A stretch of 64,000 bases of DNA from an uncultured Candidatus Rokubacteria bacterium. GTDB lineage: Bacteria > Methylomirabilota > Methylomirabilia > Rokubacteriales > CSP1-6. Shown here one piece after another: positions 15,536 through 36,628 of this stretch. The stretch lies in assembly GCA_963771355.1 (NCBI GenBank), contig CAVYTA010000007.1, positions 224,001 through 288,000 on the forward strand, written 5' to 3'. The notes below the pieces were generated by a model. The model saw nothing but the letters and a program-made list of their open reading frames with translations, had not been told where the DNA came from and searched no databases. Position numbers and translations under genes: made by a program. Within the stretch, counting starts at the first letter, position 1. Every line of letters starts with the position of its first letter.

Positions 15536-16688
15536 ATGCCCACCCCATTCGCCACGCCCCATGTGTACGAGAAGCTCGGCGTCCGCTCGGTCATTCACGG
15601 CTCCGGCACCACCACGCGCTACGGCGGCTCCCGCATGCGGCCCGAGACCATCGAGGCCATGCGCGAGGCCGCGCAGGCCCACGTGAACATCGACGAGCTG
15701 AATGCGGCCGCCGGCGCCGCCATCGCCCGCCTGCTCGCACGCACCCGCCGCGCTGGTGACGGGCGGCTCCACCGCGGGCCTGGTGCTCCAGGCCGCCGCC
15801 TGCATGACCGGCGACGATCCCGCCAAGATCGCGCGGCTGCCCGACGCCGGCGGCATGCGCAACGAGTTCGTGATCCAGCGCGCGCACCGCTTTCCGTACG
15901 ACCAGGCCTATCGCGTCCCGGGCGGCGTGCTCGTCGAGATCGGGCTGGGACGGCGCACGGCCCCGCACGAGCTGGAGGCGGCCATCGGCGAACGCACCGC
16001 CGGGGTGATCTTCCTCGTCTCCCCTTTCACGAGCCCGCCCGGCATCCTGCCGTTCGAGGAGGTCTGCCGCATTGCCCACGCGCGCGGGGTGCCGGTGCTG
16101 GTGGACGCGGCCTCCATGGTGCCGCCGCGCGAGCACCTGTTCCGCTACGTCCGCGGGGGCGCCGACCTCGTCGTCTACAGCGGTGGCAAGGGCATCCGAG
16201 GTCCGCAGAGCACGGGCATCCTCGTCGGCCGGCCGGACCTCATCCGCGCCGCCATGCTGAACGCGAGCCCGAACCAGGCCATCGGCCGCGCGGCCAAGAC
16301 GTCGAAGGAAGAGATCGTGGGGCTGGTCACCGCGCTGGAGCTCTGCCTCGCCGAGGACGAGGCGGCGGAGATGGTGCAGTTCCGGGACGCCTGCGCGCGG
16401 ATCGTGGAGGAGGTGCGGGACATCCCGGGCCTGCGTGCGGTGGTGGAGCAGGACCCGGTCAACCGCGTGATCCCCCACGCCGTGATCTACTTCGAGCCGG
16501 ACTGGGCCGGCCCCAGCGGCCCGGTGGTGCGGCGCGCCCTGGCGGAGGGCGAGCCCCACATCTACGTGCAACAGGGGACCTATCAGGGCGGCTACGGGGA
16601 CGAGCTGGCGGTAGATCCCATCAACCTGCAAGCGGGGGAGGAGAAGCTCCTCGCGGCGCGGCTGCGCGAGGAGCTCACCCGCCGCTGA
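15536..16688 (+). pseudogene. SelA-like/DgaE-family PLP-dependent enzyme with a +1 frameshift near 15737-15744
   Basis: N-terminus LGVRSVIHGSGTTTRYGGS in one frame continues as APAALVTGGS..VDAAS..YSGGKGIRGPQSTG in the +1 frame. Confidence 0.85.
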
Positions 16689-16696
16689 GCGGGCGC

Positions 16697-17659
16697 TCAG
16701 CTCACGCCGGGCTCGAGCAGCGTGAGCGTGCCCGCGTCCGCGTCCAGCTCCGCGAGACAGCCGATGGGCAGCGTGGTCTGGTCGTCCACGTGCCCGACCA
16801 TGAGGCCCGCGATCGCGGGCACACCCAGCGCGCGCGGGCGCTCGGCCAGGATGTCCTCCAGCACGCGGTTCTGGACGTAGAATGCCGACGGCTCGCAGCG
16901 CGTGAACTTGCCGAAGGCGATCCCGGCGAGCCCGGCCAGTGCGCCCGCGAGCCACAGCTGGGTGAGGAAGCGGTCGATCCGATAGAAGGGCTCGTCCACG
17001 TCCTCGAGGAAGAGGATGGCGCCGCGGAGGTCGGGGAAGTACGGCGTCCCCGCGAGGTGCGCCATCAGGCAGAGATTGCCGCCGAGGAGCCGGCCCTGTG
17101 CCCGGCCCGGCACCAGCGTGGTCACGCGGTTCTCCCACTCCGGCTGGCCCTCGCGCGGCTCCCCGCGCGGGGGTGCGCCCAGTCGAACGGGGGCGTCCGG
17201 GGACCAGAGAACCTGGCGCAGCTGGGCGAGGGAGTAGGGGGTGAAGCCGCGCGCGGCGATGGGCCCGTGAAAGCTGACCAGCCCCGCCTGCGTGTGCAGC
17301 GCCATGTGCAAGGCGGTGATGTCGCTGTAGCCGACGAGCGCCTTGGGGTTGGCGCGGATGAGGTCCCAGTCCAGCAGCGGCAGCAGGCGGGAGGCGCCAT
17401 ACCCGCCCCGCACGCACCACAGCGCATCCACCGCGGGATCCGCGAAGGTCGCCTGCAGATCCGCGGCGCGGTCCGCGTCCGCGCCCGCGAAGTAGCCCTC
17501 GCGATCGAAGACGTGCTTGCCCGGACGGACGCGGAAGCCGAGGGATTGCAGGGACTCGATCGCGTAGCGGACCCGGTCGGGCTCATTGGGCGCGCCCGAG
17601 GGGGCGACGAGACCGATGGTCTGGCCCGGCGCGAGGCGCCGCGGGCGGAGGAGGGTCAG
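16697..17659 (-). CDS. LD-carboxypeptidase (peptidase S66), probable CTG start
   Basis: PRRLAPGQTIGLVAPSG, RGGYG, GYSD (Ser), GGNL, EDVDE (Glu), GH (His); homology extends 76 codons upstream of the first GTG. Confidence 0.88.
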   Translation of the reverse strand: MTLLRPRRLAPGQTIGLVAPSGAPNEPDRVRYAIESLQSLGFRVRPGKHVFDREGYFAGADADRAADLQATFADPAVDALWCVRGGYGASRLLPLLDWDLIRANPKALVGYSDITALHMALHTQAGLVSFHGPIAARGFTPYSLAQLRQVLWSPDAPVRLGAPPRGEPREGQPEWENRVTTLVPGRAQGRLLGGNLCLMAHLAGTPYFPDLRGAILFLEDVDEPFYRIDRFLTQLWLAGALAGLAGIAFGKFTRCEPSAFYVQNRVLEDILAERPRALGVPAIAGLMVGHVDDQTTLPIGCLAELDADAGTLTLLEPGVS

Positions 17660-20879: not shown

Positions 20880-21020
20880 GGACGGATGATGCGCCAATCC
20901 GCGCATGCATGGCAAGCGGGTCGGCGGGGGCACCGGGGGCATCGCTTGACGCGGCCGCGCTCGTGCCGGACTCTAGAGGCCCGTGACTTATTCCGCGCCG
21001 CCCGACCCGACCCGTCTCGC

Positions 21021-24000
21021 ATGACCGCGTGTCCCCGCTGCGGGCACCCGGCGCTCGCGGGGGCTCGCTTCTGCTCCGCGTGCGGGACGCCGCTGGTGGC
21101 GCCGCCCGATCCCGCGCGCTTCGGCTCGCCGGGCGCCTACACGCCCGCCCATCTCGCCGAGCGCATCCGCGGCTCGCGCGAGGCGCTGGCCGGCGAGCGC
21201 AAGCAGGTCACCGTGCTCTTCGCCGACATGCAGGGCTCGATGGAGCTGCTCGCGGACCGGGATCCCGAGGAGGCGGGCCGTATCCTCGACCAGGTCCTCG
21301 AGCAGATGATGGAAGCCGTGCACCGCTACGAGGGCACCGTGAACCAGGTGATGGGCGACGGGATCATGGCGCTGTTCGGTGCCCCGCTCGCCCACGAGGA
21401 CCATGCCGTGCGGGCCGCCTACGCGGCCCTCCGCATGCAGGAGCGCATCGGCGCCTTCGGCGACCGCATGCAGCGCGCGGCGGGGGTGCCGCTGCAGATC
21501 CGCGTGGGCATCAACTCGGGCGAGGTGATGGTGCGCGCGATCGAGAACGATCTCTCCATGTCCTATACCGCGGTGGGCCCCACCGTGCATCTCGCCGCGC
21601 GCATGGAGCAGATGGCCAAGCCCGGCTCCATCCTCGCCACCGCCGACACGGTGGCCCTGGGCGGGGGCCGCGTGGTGACGCGCTCGCTGGGCCTCATCCC
21701 GGTGCGCGGCCTTCACGCCCCGGTGGAGGTGCACGAGGTGACGGGAGCCGCCACCGCCCCCTCCCGCGCCGACGCCGCCGCCGCGCGCGGGCTCTCCCCC
21801 TTCGTGGGCCGCGACACGGAGCGCGCCGCGCTCCTGGCCGCGCTCGACGCCGCCGCGGGCGGGGGCGGCCCGGTGGTGGCGATGGTGGGCGAGGCCGGCG
21901 TGGGCAAGTCGCGTCTCGTCCGCGAGTTCACCCGGCTCGCGCGCGAGCAGGGCGCCCTGGTGCTGGAGACGGCGACCGTCTCCTACGGCCGGGCGGTCGG
22001 GCACCGCGCCGGCATCGAGCTCAACCGCCGCTTCTTCCAGATCGAGCGGGGCGACGACGAGGCCGTCGCGCGCGAGAAGATCGCCGCCGGCATGCGCGCG
22101 GTGGACCGCGGCCTCGAGGACGGCATCGCCGCCGTGCAGTGGCTGCTGGGGGTGCCGCCGGCCGCGAGTCCGTTTCTCGCCCTGGATCCCGGCGCGCGCC
22201 GGCGCCGGGCGGTGGAGGTGCTCGTTCGCCTGGTGGACGGGCTGTGCGCGCGCCAGCCGGTGGTGCTGGTGTTCGAGGATCTGCAGTGGCTGGACTCCGA
22301 GGGCGCGGAGGCGCTCGACTACATGGCCACGCACATGCCGAAGCGCGCGCTGCTGCTGGTCACTTACCGGCCCGAGCACGACGACCGGTGGCACCGGGTG
22401 CCGGGCTATGCCCGGCTGCGGCTCGAGCCTCTGGCCCCGCCGGCGGCGCAGGCGCTGCTCGCTTCGCTCCTCGGCCCCGCCGAGGACACCGGCCCCATCA
22501 GCCGTCTCGTCGCCGAGCGCGGCCGGGGCAACCCGCTCTTCCTGGAGGAATGCGTGCGGAGCCTCGCGGACACCGGCGTCCTCGCGGGCTCGCGCGGCGC
22601 CTATCGCGTGGTCCGGCCGGCGGCGACCCTGGAGGTACCCGCCAGCGTGCGCGCGGTGCTCGCCGCGCGCATCGACCGCCTGCCCGCGGAGCAGAAGCGG
22701 CTCCTGCAGGCGGCGTCGGTGGTGGGCGAGGACGTGCCGGTGCCGCTGCTCGAGGCCATCGTGGACCTGCCCGTCGAGCGCGTGCGCGCGGCGCTCGACG
22801 AGCTGCGCGGCGCCGAGCTGCTTGCCGAGGCCTCCCTCTTTCCCGACCCGGTCTACGCCTTCCGGCACGCCCTCGCTCACGACGTGGCGTACGCGAGCCT
22901 GCTCCACGAGGGCCGGCGCGCGCTCCACGCGCGCATCGTGGAGACCATCGAGCGGCTCTACGCGGGGCGGCTGGACGATCAGATCGAGCGCCTGGCCCAC
23001 CACGCCTTCACCGGAGAGCAGTGGGCGCGCGCGGTGCACTACTGCCGCGAGGCCGGCCTGCGCGCGCTCGCGCGGCTGAGCTGTCCCGAGGCGGTGGAGC
23101 GGCTCGAGCGCGCCCTGGAGGCCCTCGGCCATCTCCCCGCCTCGGAGGAGTCGCGGCGGCTCGCGGTGGACCTCCGGTTCAACCTGGGGGCGGCGCTGGT
23201 TCCGCTGGGCGCGCATGCGCGGGCTCTGGGCGTCCTCCGCGAGGCGGAGGCCCTCGCGGGGACGCTGGGCGACGAGCGGCGGCTGGCGCGCGCGCTCTCC
23301 TATCAGAGCAACATGCACTGGGAGATGGGCGACGCCGAGGCGGCCAGCGAGGCGGGCCGGCGTGCGCTCGCCATCGCGGAGCGCGCCGAGGACCTCGCGC
23401 TCCAGGTGGTGGGCAACTTCAGCCTGGCCGGCGCCACGCGCTCTCTCGGCGACTATCCGCGCGCGGCCGAGCTCCTGCGGCGGAACGTGGCCCTCCTCGA
23501 AGGCGACTTGCGCTACGAGACCTTCGGCCTCGCCGGGCTCGCGTCCGTGATGTCGCGCAGCCATCTCGCGTGGAGCCTGGCCGAGCTGGGGGAGTTCGAC
23601 GAGGCCATCGCGCGCGCGGAGGAAGGGATCCGCCTGGCGGAAGCGACGGGTCACGTGTACAGCCTGGCCTACGCCTGTCTCGGGCTGGGCGGCGCGCTCC
23701 TCCGCCGCGGCCGGCTCGGCGCCGCGCAGGGCGTGCTCGAGCGGGGTCTCGCCCTCTGCGAGGAGGTGCCGGGACTCTTCCCGCCCTTCGCCGGCGATCT
23801 CGCCCTCGTGCGCGCGCTGGGCGGCCGTGCGACGGAGGCGGTGGAGCTGGCGGCCCAGGGCGTGGCGCGAGCCGAGCGCATGGGCCGCCTCGGTCGGCTG
23901 TCCCTCATCGCCACCCACCTCGGCGAGGTGCAGCTGCTCGCCGGGCGGCTCGACGAGGCGGCCGAGCAGGGCCGGCGTGCGCTCTCCCTGGCGCGGACAC

Positions 24001-24353
24001 AGAAGGAGCGCGGCAATCAGGTGTACGCGCTGCGGCTGCTGGGCCTCGTGGCGAGCGAGACGCTGCCGGCGGACCGCGATGCCGTTGCGCGTTACGAGAG
24101 CGCCGCCCGATACTTCGACGAGGCGCTGGCCCTGGCGGAGGCGCTGGGAATGCGGCCGCTGATCGCGCGCTGCCGCCTGGGGCTGGGCCGGCTGGCGCGG
24201 CGCGCGGGCGACGCCGGGACCGCCGCGCGGCACCTCGACGCGGCGACCGCGCTGCTCCACGAGCTGGGAATGACCTACTGGCTGGAGCGCGTGGATCTCG
24301 ACCCCGCCGGCCGCGCCTCGTCCCTGGGGCCTCCCGGGGCCGCCACGAGGTGA
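21021..24353 (+). CDS. Zinc-ribbon class III adenylate/guanylate cyclase with AAA ATPase and TPR domains
   Basis: CPRCG..FCSACG, VLFAD, MGDGIMALFG, HLAARME, GEAGVGKS, FEDLQW, GNPLFLEE, TPR tail. Confidence 0.93.
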   Translation: MTACPRCGHPALAGARFCSACGTPLVAPPDPARFGSPGAYTPAHLAERIRGSREALAGERKQVTVLFADMQGSMELLADRDPEEAGRILDQVLEQMMEAVHRYEGTVNQVMGDGIMALFGAPLAHEDHAVRAAYAALRMQERIGAFGDRMQRAAGVPLQIRVGINSGEVMVRAIENDLSMSYTAVGPTVHLAARMEQMAKPGSILATADTVALGGGRVVTRSLGLIPVRGLHAPVEVHEVTGAATAPSRADAAAARGLSPFVGRDTERAALLAALDAAAGGGGPVVAMVGEAGVGKSRLVREFTRLAREQGALVLETATVSYGRAVGHRAGIELNRRFFQIERGDDEAVAREKIAAGMRAVDRGLEDGIAAVQWLLGVPPAASPFLALDPGARRRRAVEVLVRLVDGLCARQPVVLVFEDLQWLDSEGAEALDYMATHMPKRALLLVTYRPEHDDRWHRVPGYARLRLEPLAPPAAQALLASLLGPAEDTGPISRLVAERGRGNPLFLEECVRSLADTGVLAGSRGAYRVVRPAATLEVPASVRAVLAARIDRLPAEQKRLLQAASVVGEDVPVPLLEAIVDLPVERVRAALDELRGAELLAEASLFPDPVYAFRHALAHDVAYASLLHEGRRALHARIVETIERLYAGRLDDQIERLAHHAFTGEQWARAVHYCREAGLRALARLSCPEAVERLERALEALGHLPASEESRRLAVDLRFNLGAALVPLGAHARALGVLREAEALAGTLGDERRLARALSYQSNMHWEMGDAEAASEAGRRALAIAERAEDLALQVVGNFSLAGATRSLGDYPRAAELLRRNVALLEGDLRYETFGLAGLASVMSRSHLAWSLAELGEFDEAIARAEEGIRLAEATGHVYSLAYACLGLGGALLRRGRLGAAQGVLERGLALCEEVPGLFPPFAGDLALVRALGGRATEAVELAAQGVARAERMGRLGRLSLIATHLGEVQLLAGRLDEAAEQGRRALSLARTQKERGNQVYALRLLGLVASETLPADRDAVARYESAARYFDEALALAEALGMRPLIARCRLGLGRLARRAGDAGTAARHLDAATALLHELGMTYWLERVDLDPAGRASSLGPPGAATR

Positions 24354-24357
24354 TACC

Positions 24358-25227
24358 ATGCCGCCCATGAACGGCGCGCTCACGAGCATGGCGGAGGCCG
24401 CCCGGCTCGTCCGGAACGGCGACCGCGTGGTCTACGTCGGCTACATGCGGATGGAGCCGGTGGCGTTCTTCCACGAGCTCCTCCGCCAGCGCCGGCGGGA
24501 CCTCCACCTCGTGCTGGCTCCCAGCTCGGGGTGGGTGGCCGACATGATGATCGGCGCCGGCGCCCTGGCCGACATCGAGTTCTCGAGCCTGTCCTTCATG
24601 GAATATGGCTTCGCGCCGAACTTCCGGCGCCGAGCGGAGGCGGGGAGCCTCCGCTACCTCGAGCACTCCTGACCCGCCCTCATGAGCGCACTCCAGGCTG
24701 GAGTGATGAACGTCCCCTTCGTGCCGGTGCGCGGGCTCCTGGGCACGGACTACATGAAGGTGCGGCCGGACTTCCGTGCGGTCCCCAATCCCTACGATCC
24801 CCGTGAGGAGATCGCGCTGGTGCCCGCCATCGCGCCCGACGTCGCCGTCTTCCACGGCATCCGCGGCGACCGCCACGGCAATGTCATCACCAGCGGGGTG
24901 CTGGACGCCAAGCTCATCGCGCAGGCCTCGCGGCGCGCGGTGGCCACGGTGGAGGAAGTCTCGGACGGCGACCTCACGCTCGAGCCGCACACCGGGGTGC
25001 TCGTCCCCGGCATCCACGTCTCCGCGGTCGTGCACGCGCCGCGCGGCGCCCATCCCACCGCCTTCGAGGGCAAGTATCCGGTGGACGGCGAGCACGTGCG
25101 CGAGTACGTGAGCGCCGCCGGGAGCGAGGCCACCTTCGCCGAGTGGCTGGACCGCTACGTGTACGGGGTGCTCGACCACGCCGCGTACCTCGAGCGCGTC
25201 GGGCTCGCAGCCGCGGCGGCCCGCTGA
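24358..25227 (+). CDS. Class I CoA-transferase-like alpha subunit with in-frame UGA, probably selenocysteine (U105)
   Basis: ORFs 24358-24672 and 24682-25227 share a frame and join as LEHS-U-PALMSALQAG..VPFVPVRGLLGTD..PAIAPDVAVFHG..GNV..HPT; SD GAGGTG. Confidence 0.88.
24680..24709 (+). promoter_or_regulatory. Putative bacterial SECIS element
   Basis: UCAU-[GAGCG]-CACUCCA-GGC-UGGAGUG-AUGA; 7-bp upper stem starts 17 nt after the UGA; G-led apical loop. Confidence 0.75.
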
Positions 25228-25241
25228 AGCCGACGGGCCGG

Positions 25242-25976
25242 ATGGCCCCCACCGCCGATGAGCCCACCCGCGCCGAGGTGATGGCGGTCGCCATCGCGCG
25301 GCGCCTGCGCGACGGCGAGACCATCGCGGTGGGCTCGGTGTCGCCCATCCCCGCCAGCGCCTGCCTTCTCGCCAAGCGGCTCCACGCCCCGGCGGCGCGC
25401 CTCATCCTCCTCGGCAGCCGCGCCCACTTCCCCTTCAATGGCGGGGTGCAGGAGTTCTACAACTACGCGGTGCGGGGACGGCTGGACGTCTTCTTCGCCA
25501 GCGGGGCGCAGATCGACGGCCACGGCAACTTCAACCTCAGCGTGATCGGGGACTACGACCGGCCCACCGTCCGGCTGCCGGGCGGGCGCGCCAACGGCAT
25601 CCTCTCCTTCGTGGCCAAGCGCCTCATCCTCTTCCGCACCGAGCACAGCCGCCGCGTCTTCGTGCCCCGGGTGGACTTCATCACCTCGCCCGGCACCACC
25701 CCGGAGGGCGTGTACCGGATCGGCGGGCTCCACGCGGTGGTGACCGACCTCTGCGTGTTCGAGTTCGATCGCGCGAAGGGCCGCCTCGAGCTGGGCACGG
25801 TGCATCCGGGGGTGACCCTGGCGGAGGTCGAGAGCCGGACCGGGTTTCCCCTGCACGCGCCCTCGCCCGTGCCCGCCTCGCCGACCCCGAGCGCGGAGGA
25901 GCTGGCGCTCCTGCGCGGGCCGGTGCGCGAGGAGCTCGGCACCTTCTACCCGGAGTTCGTCAAGCAGCAGTCTTGA
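25242..25976 (+). CDS. Class I CoA-transferase-like beta subunit lacking the canonical Glu
   Basis: DVFFASGAQIDGHGNFN, RLPGG, FVPRVDFITSPG, VVTDL, VHPGVT. Confidence 0.9.
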   Translation: MAPTADEPTRAEVMAVAIARRLRDGETIAVGSVSPIPASACLLAKRLHAPAARLILLGSRAHFPFNGGVQEFYNYAVRGRLDVFFASGAQIDGHGNFNLSVIGDYDRPTVRLPGGRANGILSFVAKRLILFRTEHSRRVFVPRVDFITSPGTTPEGVYRIGGLHAVVTDLCVFEFDRAKGRLELGTVHPGVTLAEVESRTGFPLHAPSPVPASPTPSAEELALLRGPVREELGTFYPEFVKQQS

Positions 25977-26054: not shown

Positions 26055-28535
<2,481 letters not shown>

Positions 28536-29208: not shown

Positions 29209-29863
29209 GTGGCTGCGGCGCAAACTCCAGATCAGGACCGGCAGCGTGATCCCGAGACGACCCTGGGTGATTTGCTCTACGCCAACAAGGCGAAGACGCC
29301 CATTCCCGAGAGCGACTGGGTCGGACTCGTCCAGTCCATCGCTCGAGGCGACCAGTTGGCGCTGCATGCACTCTACACGCAGGCACATCGAATCGTGTTC
29401 ACCTTGATCATGCGGATCACCAGCAATCGGGCAACCTCTGAAGAGCTGACGCTGGATGTGTTCTACGATGTGTGGCGACGAGCCTCGTCGTACGATCCGG
29501 AGGGCGGCCCCGTCATCGGATGGATCATGAACCAAGCGCGGTCCAGAGCGATTGACCGGTTGCGGTTCGACCAGCGGAAGAAACGCGTCAACGATCATGC
29601 GGACGGTCCACTTCCGGTGACGGCTTCGCGTGGCCCCGACGAGGCCTTCGACGCTCAGAGAGCAGGGCCAGCTCTTGCGAGAGGCCTTGAAGGTACTCTC
29701 TCCGCAAGAGCGACAGGCTATCGAAACCGCATTTTTCTCCGAGATGACGTATGCCGAAGCAGCAGCACAATTGAATCAACCCCTCGGAACCGTGAAGACA
29801 CGAATCCGCTCCGGATTGGCAGCACTCCGACAGGCGCTCACCGACGCATTGAGGGCCCGATGA
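29209..29863 (+). pseudogene. ECF sigma factor with a +1 frameshift near 29655
   Basis: Sigma2 (GDQLALHALY..WIMNQARSRAIDRLR) and sigma4 (LSPQERQAI..PLGTVKTRIRSGL) lie in different frames. Confidence 0.87.
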
Positions 29864-30441
29864 GTTCAGAATCGAGCCACCACGATCGGGACCGCCTGGA
29901 ATCGGTGTTCCTTTACGCCTTGCAGGTCCTTCCCTCGAGCGAGCGTCTCCTCGTGGAGGCGCATATCTCCGCGTGTGCGGATTGCCGGCACGAACTGGAG
30001 ACGCTTCGCCCAGTCATCGGCGCCTTCACCTCCTGGCCAACCGATGTGCTGCGACCATCGGCATCGCTATGGGAACGCCTTGCCCAGCGAATCGCGGCGG
30101 AGACGGGCGAGGCGCCGGGGATATCAGCGCCTCGCCGACTGGCTGAACCGGAATGGGAAGAGGCGGCGCCTGGCATCTCCTGCAAACTCCTCGCCACGGA
30201 TACAGAGAAACACCGCGTCAGCATGCTCGTGCGGCTCGCGCCGGGAGCCGAGTATCCGCCTCATCGTCATGCCGGAATCGAAGAGTTGTATCTGTTGCAT
30301 GGTGAGCTGACGATCGACGACAAGAAGCTCTATCCTGGGGACTACAACCGGGCGGAGCCTGGCACCGCCGATCAGCGTATCTGGAGCGAGACCGGCTGTA
30401 CGTGCGTTCTCCTCACCTCGACCCGAGACGTTCTTCGCTGA
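29860..30441 (+). CDS. ChrR-like anti-sigma factor (ZAS + cupin_7)
   Basis: HISACADC (HxxxCxxC), YPPHRHAGIEE cupin; ATGA overlap with the sigma stop. Confidence 0.88.
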   Translation: MSSESSHHDRDRLESVFLYALQVLPSSERLLVEAHISACADCRHELETLRPVIGAFTSWPTDVLRPSASLWERLAQRIAAETGEAPGISAPRRLAEPEWEEAAPGISCKLLATDTEKHRVSMLVRLAPGAEYPPHRHAGIEELYLLHGELTIDDKKLYPGDYNRAEPGTADQRIWSETGCTCVLLTSTRDVLR

Positions 30442-33945: not shown

Positions 33946-35033
33946 TGCACGTCGGCCTCGCGGCGGTATTCCAGAACCCCGGCCGGGCGCGCACCGACTT
34001 CGAGGTCTACCAGGGGGAGCTGCGTCTGGCCGACCTCGCCGAGCCTCTGGGCTTCGAGTCGGTGTGGGGGGTGGAGCACCACTTCACCGACTACACCATG
34101 TGCCCGGACGTCCTGCAGTTCCTCACCTACATGGCGGGGCGGACCGAGCGCATCCAGCTCGGCTCCATGGTGGTGGTGCTGCCCTGGCACGACCCCATGC
34201 GGGTGGCGGAGGAGATCGCCATGCTCGACAACATCTCGGGCGGGCGTCTCATCCTGGGGCTCGGCCGGGGCGCGGGCAAGGTGGAGTTCGACGGCTTTCG
34301 GCAGTCGATGGACGAGTCGCGTCCGCGCTTCGTGGAGAGCGCCCAGATGCTGCTGCGCGGGCTGGAGACGGGCTTCTGCGAATACGACGGCACCTACGTG
34401 CAGCAGCCGCGCGCGGCCATCCGGCCCGCGCCCTTCAAGTCGTTCCGCGGCCGCACCTATGCGGCGGCGGTGTCGCCGGAGTCGGCGCGCATCATGGCCG
34501 AGCTGGGGGTGGGCATCCTGATCATCCCCCAGAAGCCCTGGGCGGAAGTGGCCCGCGAGCTGGACGACTACCGCGCGCTCTACCGAGGGGTCAACGGCGT
34601 GGAGGCGCCGCCGCCCATCTCCGCGGGCTGGACCTTCTGCGACGAGAGCGCGGACCGGGCCCGCGAGCTGGCGCGCCGGTACATCGGCGGCTATTTCCAG
34701 TCGGTGCTCGCGCACTACCGGTTCGGCGACGACCACCTCGTCAAGACCAAGGGCTACGAGTACTACGGCAAGATGACCGAGAAGATCCACACCTACGGGG
34801 AGGACACCGTGGTGGACTTCTTCGTGAACCTCCAGGTGTGGGGCACGCCGGAGCAGTGCTACGAGAAGATCCTCGACATCCGGCGGCGCACCGGCAACAC
34901 GCACTTCGTGGGCGTCTTCTCCTATGCCGGCATGCCGTGGGCGGAGGCGGAGCGCAACATGCGCCTGTTCGCGCGAGACGTCATGCCCGCGCTGCAGAAG
35001 CTCGAGCAGCCGACGGAGCCGGCGGCGCGATGA
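33945..35033 (+). CDS. LLM-class flavin-dependent monooxygenase
   Basis: WGVEHHF, VLPWHDP.RVAEE..LDNISGGR; TGATG coupling. Confidence 0.92.
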   Translation: MHVGLAAVFQNPGRARTDFEVYQGELRLADLAEPLGFESVWGVEHHFTDYTMCPDVLQFLTYMAGRTERIQLGSMVVVLPWHDPMRVAEEIAMLDNISGGRLILGLGRGAGKVEFDGFRQSMDESRPRFVESAQMLLRGLETGFCEYDGTYVQQPRAAIRPAPFKSFRGRTYAAAVSPESARIMAELGVGILIIPQKPWAEVARELDDYRALYRGVNGVEAPPPISAGWTFCDESADRARELARRYIGGYFQSVLAHYRFGDDHLVKTKGYEYYGKMTEKIHTYGEDTVVDFFVNLQVWGTPEQCYEKILDIRRRTGNTHFVGVFSYAGMPWAEAERNMRLFARDVMPALQKLEQPTEPAAR

Positions 35034-36628
35034 GCGCGACCGTCACCCCCGCCGCCCTCGGCACCCTGATGAGCGGGACGGTGCCCCATGCCGTGCTCGA
35101 CCTGCGCGAGCGCGCCGCCTACGAGCGGGGCCACATCTACTGGACCACGTCCCTGCCGCGGCGCCTCCTGGAGACGCGCCTGCCCTCCCTGGTGACGGCC
35201 CCCTCCACGCCCATCGTCCTGATCGACGAGGACGGGAGCCTCTCCGAGCTCGCCCGGCCCACGCTGGCGGCCATGGGCTACACCGACGTCCGCGTCCTCG
35301 CCGGCGGTCTGAGCGCCTGGCGGGCGGGGGATCGGCCCACCGTGCAGGGCCTCAACGTGCCGAGCAAGGTGTTCGGGGAGCGCGCGCTGCACGAGTTCAA
35401 GACCCCGCAGGTGTCCTGCCCGGAGCTCGCCAAGCGGCTCGCCAGCGGCCACGACATGGTGATCGTGGACTCGCGCACGCCCGAGGAGTATCACCGCGGC
35501 TGCATCCCCGGCGCCTGGAGCATGCCCGGGGGCGAGCTGGTGCTGCGCATCGGCGAGGTGGTGGCGCGGCCCGACCAGACCATCGTGGTCCACTGCGGCG
35601 GGCGCACGCGCTCCTATATCGGAGCGGAGTCGCTGCGCCGCATGGGCCTGCCCAACCCCATCATCGCGCTCGAGAACGGGACGATGGGATGGCAGCTGGC
35701 GGGGCTGGAGCTCGAGCGGGGCGCCGAGCGCTGGGCGCCGGCTCCCTCCCCGCGCGGCCGGGCGGTGGCCGCCGAGGTAGCGGGCCGAGTGGCCAGGAGC
35801 GACGGCCTTCGCGGGGTGACGGCAGACGAGCTCAAGGACATGCAGGCGCGCCGCGCGGACGAGAACCTTTACGTCTTCGACGTGCGCACTACCGAGGAGT
35901 ACGCGGCGGGACATCCCGCGGGGGCGGTGTGGGCGCCCGGCGGCCAGGCGGTGCAGGCCATCGACGACTACCTCGCGGTGCGTGGCGCCCAGATCGTCTT
36001 CGTCTGCGACGATGGCAGCCGGGCCGCGCTGACCGCGGCATGGTACGGGCGCCTGGGCTTCCGCAAGGTCGCCTACCTCGAGGGCGGGCTTCCCGCGTGG
36101 CAGGCGGCGGGCGGCGCCCTCGAGGCGGGCCATCCCGTCCCTGCGACCTGGGGGCTGGAGGCCGCGTGGGCCGGCGTGGCGACGGTAGCGCCCGGCGCGC
36201 TGGGCGCTGCCCTCGTGCTCAGCGTTGATCCCAGCGACGTCTATCTCCGCGCGCACGTGCCCGGGGCGGCCTGGCTCTGCCGGAGCCGCCTCGAGACGCG
36301 CATCGGCGCCGTGGCCCCGAACCGGGCCCGGGCGCTGGTGCTGACCTGCGCCGACGGCGCGCAGTCCACCCTCGCCGCCGCCACGCTCGCGCGCCTCGGA
36401 TACTCGTCGGTCCGCGTCCTCGCGGGCGGGGTGCGCGCCTGGCAGGCGGCGGGGCAGCCGGTGGAGGCGGGTCCGACCCGGCTCCTCGACGAGGCGGACG
36501 ACGTGGTGCTCAAGCCCTACGAGCGCGGCCGCGCGGCCATGGAGGCCTATCTCCGCTGGGAGGAGGCACTCGACCTCGAGGGCCGGAGCCCGCACGCGTT
36601 GCTCCCCGACGCGCGCGCGCGGCGATGA
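35030..36628 (+). CDS. Four-domain rhodanese-related sulfurtransferase
   Basis: Four rhodanese repeats; NVPSKVFGE; active loop HCGGRTRS; ATGA coupling. Confidence 0.9.
   Translation: MSATVTPAALGTLMSGTVPHAVLDLRERAAYERGHIYWTTSLPRRLLETRLPSLVTAPSTPIVLIDEDGSLSELARPTLAAMGYTDVRVLAGGLSAWRAGDRPTVQGLNVPSKVFGERALHEFKTPQVSCPELAKRLASGHDMVIVDSRTPEEYHRGCIPGAWSMPGGELVLRIGEVVARPDQTIVVHCGGRTRSYIGAESLRRMGLPNPIIALENGTMGWQLAGLELERGAERWAPAPSPRGRAVAAEVAGRVARSDGLRGVTADELKDMQARRADENLYVFDVRTTEEYAAGHPAGAVWAPGGQAVQAIDDYLAVRGAQIVFVCDDGSRAALTAAWYGRLGFRKVAYLEGGLPAWQAAGGALEAGHPVPATWGLEAAWAGVATVAPGALGAALVLSVDPSDVYLRAHVPGAAWLCRSRLETRIGAVAPNRARALVLTCADGAQSTLAAATLARLGYSSVRVLAGGVRAWQAAGQPVEAGPTRLLDEADDVVLKPYERGRAAMEAYLRWEEALDLEGRSPHALLPDARARR

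Follow-up and report, generated by a model that had tools for sequence, protein, structure and literature searches.

Does a UGA codon that interrupts the gene of a coenzyme A (CoA)-transferase-like alpha subunit encode selenocysteine (Sec), and what would such a residue do in this fold? The question is raised by a 64,000-nt window, the whole stretch of DNA analysed here, on contig CAVYTA010000007.1 of an uncultured Candidatus Rokubacteria bacterium. A preliminary description of this DNA had merged two called open reading frames (ORFs) into one frame broken only by TGA at 24670-24672, followed by an otherwise intact beta-subunit gene, and had proposed a probable selenoprotein. Re-reading bore out this frame, which runs from ATG 24358 to TGA 25225-25227 with a sole internal stop at codon 105 (surrounding residues LEHS*PALMSALQAGVMNVPFVPVRGLLGTD, the asterisk standing for the TGA), and the beta gene was seen as an intact PF01144 frame. 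As a result of the comparisons described below, we put the probability that UGA 105 is read as Sec at about 0.96. The features of the locus are the following.

24347..24352, + strand: GAGGTG resembling a ribosome-binding site before the alpha start (inferred from sequence)
24358..25227, + strand: alpha subunit, 289 amino acids if the TGA is read through, PF01144, GctA/AibA/IpdA-like fold (Pfam, AlphaFold2, Foldseek)
24670..24672, + strand: in-frame TGA, codon 105, predicted Sec, in the column of IpdA Glu105 and at the start of model helix 105-117
24689..24705, + strand: hairpin resembling a selenocysteine insertion sequence (SECIS), stem 6-7 bp, loop GGC or AGGCN (RNAalifold consensus, pair counts, codon bias)
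25242..25976, + strand: beta subunit, 244 amino acids, PF01144, Leu57 at the CoA-transferase catalytic Glu position (Pfam, alignment)

Close orthologues of the alpha subunit begin at a Met matching codon 4 (24367), and the Pfam CoA_trans match spans residues 9-226 of the read-through protein, which has no CxxU/UxxC motif and no further Cys. The beta gene starts 14 bases downstream of the alpha stop and follows alpha also in those TGA loci whose neighbourhoods were read. A promoter/terminator scan at the locus found nothing.

Decoding of the in-frame UGA

When the gene was compared with its relatives, TGA occupied column 105 in 73 of 86 related loci (own locus included; the 86 are redundant and comprise 57 distinct genes), and these make up all but one of the 74 loci whose identity is at least 43%. 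The exception is frameshifted and carries the same TGA context, while the 12 loci below 43% identity read AAC (11) or TGC (1); neither TAA nor TAG was seen at this column among the 86 loci. Of 151 genomes sampled from the phylum, 25 gave a match with E<=1e-55, and all 25 have the TGA; the named records are Rokubacteria / Methylomirabilota. The TGA is thus not unique to one assembly. Indeed, contigs of three DNA runs (X5, X9 and X13) and of one RNA run (X17), the latter being no proof of transcription, cross codon 105 unchanged; these are four of eight runs and come from four studies, one possibly the source sample, and the other four (DNA runs X1 and X2, RNA runs X15 and X16) lack coverage there.

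The UGA was also said to replace a conserved Cys, and the protein matches agree. Among the best 120, 112 are C-terminal halves starting at Met109 (37) or Met117 (75), and all eight full-length proteins have Cys at column 105; Cys homologues reading DATCPAIHAG or DSTCPAIHAG are present. Among 150 distant representatives, the column holds Glu (43), Cys (38), Asn (18), Gly (9), His (9) and a few others, with 16 halves. A quick tree of 122 rows with SH-aLRT (Shimodaira-Hasegawa-like approximate likelihood-ratio test) support only, built from all Cys rows with enough coverage, 15 TGA rows, nine halves and non-Cys protein rows up to P0200, placed all 15 TGA rows inside a 53-row clade (SH-aLRT 100) of Sec, Cys and half-proteins only, where they occupy three separate places among the Cys rows. 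Half-proteins named Syntrophales and Dethiobacter, which begin just after column 105, fall into the same clade and at most suggest that the TGA form may occur in phyla beyond Methylomirabilota. Two loci labelled 'Candidatus Nitrosocosmicus sp.' (L026) and 'Verrucomicrobiia bacterium' (L032) were rejected as representatives of other phyla: their genes are identical in score and local sequence to those of the same-genus genomes G003 and G001, so that the labels are probably wrong. As a separate observation, the genome encodes three alpha paralogues with Asn (C6:1646492), Met (C6:1269763) and His (C5:725709) at column 105.

Downstream of the UGA, CACUCCA-GGC-UGGAGUG can form a hairpin with 23 nt between the UGA and the loop and the loop G as the 24th base, confirming the spacing given in the preliminary description. 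Its geometry (loop 3 or 5 nt, UGA spacing 22-23 nt, stem 6-7 bp, -8.3 kcal/mol) satisfies the constraints published for bacterial SECIS elements, namely a loop of 3-9 nt with G in the first two loop positions, a spacing of 16-37 nt, a stem of 4-16 bp and an energy of <= -7.5 kcal/mol (PMC13188914 section 5). We did not take the lone hairpin as evidence, since the fold of the single sequence is not above chance (z -0.3 to -0.9) and an equally stable G-loop hairpin follows 7.1% of 3000 random TGA triplets in the genome. The support comes instead from conservation. RNAalifold on 46 distinct sequences returned a six-pair stem with an AGGCN loop; paired cells make up 94.7% of the hairpin alignment versus 32-41% in slid controls, and none of 500 shuffles reached its paired fraction or covariation score. 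Stem changes include C-G to G-C and A-U to G-C, and the CUCC/GGAG stem is absent from the 13 Cys genes compared.

Codon usage points the same way. The alpha gene has a third-position GC content (GC3) of 0.94, with GCA and GCT each accounting for two of 41 Ala codons and GGA for one of 24 Gly codons, and the hairpin holds the only GGA, one of the two GCA and one of the two GCT, as had been noted of its rare codons. For the Gly in the stem, 43 of the 46 sequences use GGA, which makes up 4.1% of Gly codons elsewhere in these genes, and the other three use GGG, which retains a U-G pair; for the stem Leu all 46 use CTC (57% elsewhere), and 28 of the 46 have GCT as loop codon, against 2.4% of Ala codons elsewhere. 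Judged by these comparisons, the hairpin is under selection. The earlier idea of selection on RNA structure thus holds for the aligned sequences and not for the single fold.

The machinery for Sec is present in the genome, where selA, selB, selD and tRNA-Sec (selC) all score over cut-off; tRNA-Sec, selA and selB are clustered about 135 kb from the alpha gene on the same contig, and selD lies on another. Among the 31 other TGA-bearing genomes, selB was matched in 24 and selA in 23. Four findings that the preliminary description had named as contrary to a selenoprotein, namely a sense codon in the reads, a TGA confined to this assembly, homologues without Cys at the column and a genome without Sec machinery, were all looked for and none was seen, which supports predicted Sec incorporation. 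Two further observations concern these genes. In this genome, selD (C4:225335-226252) is free of internal TGA; the N-terminal motif of its product is CGGC, and the gene is part of an open frame of 817 residues, whereas a TGA-type SelD occurs in genomes G014, G016, G018 and G073. The window itself encodes at 15536-16688 a SelA-family enzyme dependent on pyridoxal phosphate, below the selA cut-off, with its N-terminal part seemingly in another frame, a probable frameshift.

Several observations weigh against Sec at codon 105. No selB match was found in seven of the 31 genomes, three of which are at least 90% complete; five of the seven were checked, and selD was present in all five, as a TGA-containing gene in four, and tRNA-Sec in only one. 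This pattern fits a selABC locus that was left unassembled, a fit that is not proof. Two of five shuffle measures of the hairpin (pair counts) are not above the shuffles, and the double-sided stem changes mostly separate two subclades and coincide with amino-acid changes, so that the compensatory changes represent few events. A suppressor tRNA might also insert Cys or Trp at the UGA, or the protein might be made in two pieces by re-initiation at Met109, in keeping with an ATG four codons after the TGA and with databases that call the C-terminal half alone. Both are very improbable: TAA and TAG never take the place of TGA in the 73 loci, the only UCA-anticodon tRNA found in the genome is tRNA-Sec, TGA also ends both the alpha and the beta gene normally, the hairpin is kept at SECIS spacing, and two separate pieces would lack the conserved residues 105-108, with which the active-site helix begins. 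Further genes of the window look frameshifted, so that the assembly may be indel-prone, and a pseudogene or assembly error at codon 105 might be considered on this ground. We rejected it as next to impossible, since the identical TGA recurs in the independent contigs and in orthologues down to 43% identity, and since, in 16 of 18 comparisons made by half-gene and covering both halves, silent substitutions outnumber replacements, a mark of purifying selection.

Active site, relatives and novelty

The AlphaFold2 model of the alpha subunit (mean predicted local distance difference test, pLDDT, 96) matched AibA, GctA and IpdA best in Foldseek, with template modelling (TM) scores of 0.79-0.89. The Rhodococcus IpdA chains of Protein Data Bank (PDB) entries 6co6 and 6coj read REMDEGM and REMDAGM, respectively, and this Glu/Ala difference, which belongs to the 'IpdAB E105A COCHEA-CoA complex' of the 6coj title, aligns with codon 105. 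IpdA Glu105 is the residue that we take to be the catalytic base of IpdAB. Column 105 is very probably an active-site switch position (Glu, Cys, Sec, Asn or His) in a large, mostly misnamed enzyme family.

The beta subunit speaks to the name. No Glu was found at beta positions 55-59 in any of 120 homologues, and the Glu54 equivalent is Leu in 117 of the 120, with no Cys. Glu54 of the beta subunit is essential for CoA transfer in glutaconate CoA-transferase (GCT), and IpdAB, which is without that Glu, is not a transferase, the missing Glu being one of two lines of evidence given (PMC5380842). Because the beta-subunit glutamate is missing, the alpha/beta pair is probably not a CoA-transferase, and with the IpdAB precedent the database name 'glutaconate CoA-transferase' is therefore probably wrong. 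The description as a CoA-transferase-like alpha subunit survives for the PF01144 fold, and transferase function is improbable.

The relatives place the pair more closely. The IpdAB ring-cleaving hydrolase of COCHEA-CoA (PDB 6co6, 6co9, 6coj and 6con) shares the alpha/beta fold (TM 0.88-0.89) and the absence of the beta Glu, but differs in having Glu in place of Sec, in its identity of 24-26% and in its setting, there being no steroid C/D-ring genes among the neighbours of the present pair. The Myxococcus AibA/AibB decarboxylase (PDB 5mzw series) is the best match in both sequence and fold (E 3.6e-26) and likewise puts the fold to a use other than transfer; AibA, however, has Gly at column 105, and the AibB Cys mutated in the deposited series aligns with beta Leu57, the position at which no homologue among the 120 has Cys. 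GctAB and the PcaIJ/CatIJ pairs, family I CoA-transferases, share PF01144 and the alpha-beta gene order and are the source of the database names, whereas their catalytic beta Glu (Glu54 in GCT; YESG in pcaF-linked pairs) is missing here and their column 105 is Gln or His. FdhA-type bacterial selenoproteins with an intragenic SECIS offer the same in-frame UGA at a Cys column, the same G-led loop and a full SelA/SelB/SelC/SelD set, but they have no PF01144 counterpart in the list cited next and, unlike them, the present protein lacks CxxU/UxxC.

The earlier claim that this is a selenoprotein fold missing from the known lists agrees with the catalogues that we compared. None of the 119 selenoprotein families catalogued in May 2026 is a PF01144 family (PMC13188914 Table 1), a term search found no such CoA-related family in the deep-Sep main text and supplements, the BSepDB main text or SelCysML, and no NCBIfam release 20.0 model scored over cut-off for the alpha protein. 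No prior report of a CoA-transferase selenoprotein was found in the literature by title; one may stand in BSepDB Table S2 or in the candidate lists of Deng et al. 2026, whose groundwater genomes include Methylomirabilota. On comparative grounds, the protein very likely belongs to a selenoprotein family that the catalogues have yet to list, being a probable non-transferase of the CoA-transferase fold in which Sec would occupy the active-site switch position.

Gene neighbourhoods and the candidate reaction

Since the Sec genes lack informative neighbours, homologous loci were read for chemistry. Twenty-four of the 25 such loci come from a plasmid collection and the last from a related genome; 13 have Cys at column 105 and 12 do not. 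Eleven of the 13 Cys loci fall into four types of sulfur- or redox-related surroundings. (a) In four, which are coenzyme M (CoM) alkene clusters, genes of an acyl-CoA ligase and of the flavin disulfide-reductase family are also present; the beta subunit of the Xanthobacter cluster has Ala where the actinobacterial ones have Glu, with Cys105 retained. (b) The Acetoanaerobium locus contains methylthioribose kinase and isomerase, a microcompartment aldolase and an aldehyde dehydrogenase, with a CoA-disulfide reductase directly before the Cys alpha/beta pair. (c) One locus combines a CaiB CoA-transferase with glutathione reductase, a glutathione S-transferase, cysteine dioxygenase and 3-sulfinopropanoyl-CoA desulfinase. 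(d) Five loci carry CaiB with a molybdopterin oxidoreductase (of S/N-oxide reductase type where typed), most together with AhpD-like and rhodanese genes. The reductases beside the pair in (a) and (b) score best to CoA-disulfide reductase models, while no disulfide reductase, CoM or methylthio gene was seen in the 12 non-Cys loci (His, Glu, Gly or Ala), which accompany pca, acyl-CoA dehydrogenase, F420 or sugar-transport genes.

The company of Cys homologues with thioether pathways and disulfide reductases suggests reductive C-S cleavage via a selenylsulfide, and we consider it possible, at slightly less than even odds, that the protein is a selenoenzyme cleaving (alkylthio)acetyl-CoA in this way. 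By pathway logic, the CoM and methylthioribose routes would each yield R-S-CH2-CO-SCoA, from which R-SH has to be lost. A precedent exists in 2-ketopropyl-CoM oxidoreductase/carboxylase (2-KPCC), where a thiolate attacks the thioether sulfur, the enolate leaves and a mixed disulfide forms. The likeness is the chemistry itself; 2-KPCC differs as a flavoprotein of the disulfide-reductase fold that acts on a ketone, whereas the present pair has an unrelated fold and would depend on a separately encoded reductase; such partners stand beside the Cys homologues, and none is assignable in this genome.

The proposed sequence would begin with SelB and Sec-tRNA binding the hairpin, so that UGA 105 is decoded as Sec. 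Judged by homology, Sec105 would then be the active-site residue at the position of IpdA Glu105 in a pair outside the family I CoA-transferases, a step that we regard as highly probable. More tentatively, and with the reservation already made for the overall reaction, the selenolate would attack the thioether sulfur, which would sit where the IpdAB substrate has its beta carbon; the acetyl-CoA enolate would depart, leaving an enzyme-Se-S-R selenylsulfide, which a small thiol (CoA, glutathione or similar) would resolve, and a flavin disulfide reductase would recycle the resulting disulfide. The net reaction would be R-S-acetyl-CoA + NAD(P)H -> acetyl-CoA + R-SH. Attack on sulfur with the acetyl-CoA enolate as leaving group would, by analogy, parallel both the 2-KPCC mechanism and bond cleavage by IpdAB, a retro-Claisen hydrolysis (PMC6678751). 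The preliminary description had set the protein apart from selenoprotein lists made up mostly of oxidoreductases. Its absence from the catalogues stands. It may not be so unlike the oxidoreductases, given that the neighbourhoods point to sulfur-redox chemistry.

Several observations speak against this reaction. The Sec genes share no pathway genes in the 26 loci read or in three longer stretches, and the loci read are mutually non-independent and of plasmid-collection origin. Two of the 13 Cys loci (L126 and L128) are without sulfur context, two non-Cys loci (L135 and L136) are poorly annotated, and another (L110) has a sulfite-oxidase-like gene and ggt nearby. According to the quick tree, the CoM and methylthioribose contexts lie outside the 53-row Sec clade and only (c) and (d) inside it, and context (d) may concern N-oxide rather than S-oxide chemistry. 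The beta subunits of Nocardioides and Mycolicibacterium retain Glu, and for the pair of the ethene cluster the literature assumes malonate CoA-transferase activity (PMC8727900). When this genome was searched for the partners seen at the Cys loci, MtnK, class II aldolase, PduP and FGGY were all without a match, the best candidate for a CoA-disulfide reductase (E 8e-50) fell short of the cut-off, and none of the 31 CaiB matches was assignable as a partner.

Sec105 could instead attack carbon, either in a thiolase-like or retro-Claisen cleavage of a 3-oxoacyl-CoA via an acyl-selenoester or, like glycine/betaine reductase B, in a bimolecular nucleophilic substitution (SN2) on the alpha carbon. The recoding and the active-site position serve such a mechanism equally well, the closest solved relatives cleave C-C bonds (IpdAB, PMC6678751; the AibA/AibB decarboxylase, from its PDB titles), and the two Cys loci without sulfur context fall into place; it would, however, leave unexplained why the Cys forms, unlike the Glu, His and Gly forms, keep company with disulfide reductases and thioether pathways, and we hold it unlikely. 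Somewhat less probable still is that Sec105 acts as a general acid/base, or that the pair transfers CoA in an atypical way, doing without the glutamate that such enzymes normally use. Because column 105 is so often Glu, Asn, His or Gly in the distant representatives, the residue is not a nucleophile family-wide, and AibB Cys56 is an example of a Cys acting as a general acid/base. Some beta partners of Cys alphas do retain Glu, and a transferase is what has been presumed for the ethene cluster. Against this reading stand the selenol pKa of 5.2 (PMC13188914 section 8), which makes for a poor base, the absence of Glu from 120/120 close beta subunits and the finding that Sec and Cys have replaced each other repeatedly within one clade, as is typical of residues with a nucleophilic or redox role.

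Reductive C-S cleavage by attack on sulfur remains our leading proposal, and we suggest, with still more reserve than for the reaction itself, that the protein represents, with selenium in its active site, a class of enzyme that has yet to be described: reductive C-S lyases of the CoA-transferase fold acting on (alkylthio)acetyl-CoA. If so, it would bring the first Sec into the CoA-transferase fold and be the third catalytic reuse of that fold, after IpdAB and AibAB. In ethene and vinyl chloride assimilation, a pathway for which the evidence has been termed incomplete (PMC11507031), the Cys forms of the class would account for the release of CoM, a step as yet unproven, and in the microcompartment pathway they would turn methylthioribose-derived methylthioacetyl-CoA into acetyl-CoA and methanethiol. 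Thioether cleavage would be relevant both to a step in vinyl chloride biodegradation that still awaits confirmation and to the release of methanethiol by microbes; a literature search found no methylthioacetate-related reports. The family is split in databases, where half-proteins dominate the closest entries, and its lineage is abundant, uncultured and from soil, while cultured Cys homologues occur in Paracoccus denitrificans PD1222 (PDEN_RS22910/22905), Nocardioides JS614 (NOCA_RS00540/00535) and Acetoanaerobium.

Further observations on the loci and the window

The microcompartment locus of Acetoanaerobium noterae (L116:2111-16873, NZ_CP154629.1) also encodes shell proteins and a sugar ATP-binding cassette (ABC) transporter, and its aldolase is of class II. 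From its gene content it looks like a methylthioribose fermentation pathway, and no description of a locus of this type was found in the literature search. A conserved Rhodobacterales operon, seen on Paracoccus denitrificans PD1222 plasmid 1 (L113:9174-20702) and in L109, L115 and L117, comprises a Cys alpha/beta pair, CaiB, a 2-hydroxyacid dehydrogenase, an aldolase, an FGGY kinase, an enzyme dependent on thiamine diphosphate, a BisC-type reductase and AhpD-like and rhodanese genes, with an ABC transporter on the opposite strand.

Within the window, the pair is preceded at 20943-24353 by a gene with zinc-ribbon, adenylate/guanylate cyclase, AAA and tetratricopeptide-repeat regions, which ends four bases before the alpha start, and the beta gene is followed at 26055-28535 by an H+-pyrophosphatase; these two genes flank the pair only within the genus, the order being kept only in close relatives. 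At 16697-17431 (- strand), an LD-carboxypeptidase match lacks the first 66 model positions, and at 29209-30441 (+ strand), sigma-factor-like and cupin-like readings stand in one ORF (judged by eye); both may reflect indels in the assembly. Finally, a protein with four rhodanese domains is encoded at 35030-36628, directly after a luciferase-like monooxygenase gene.
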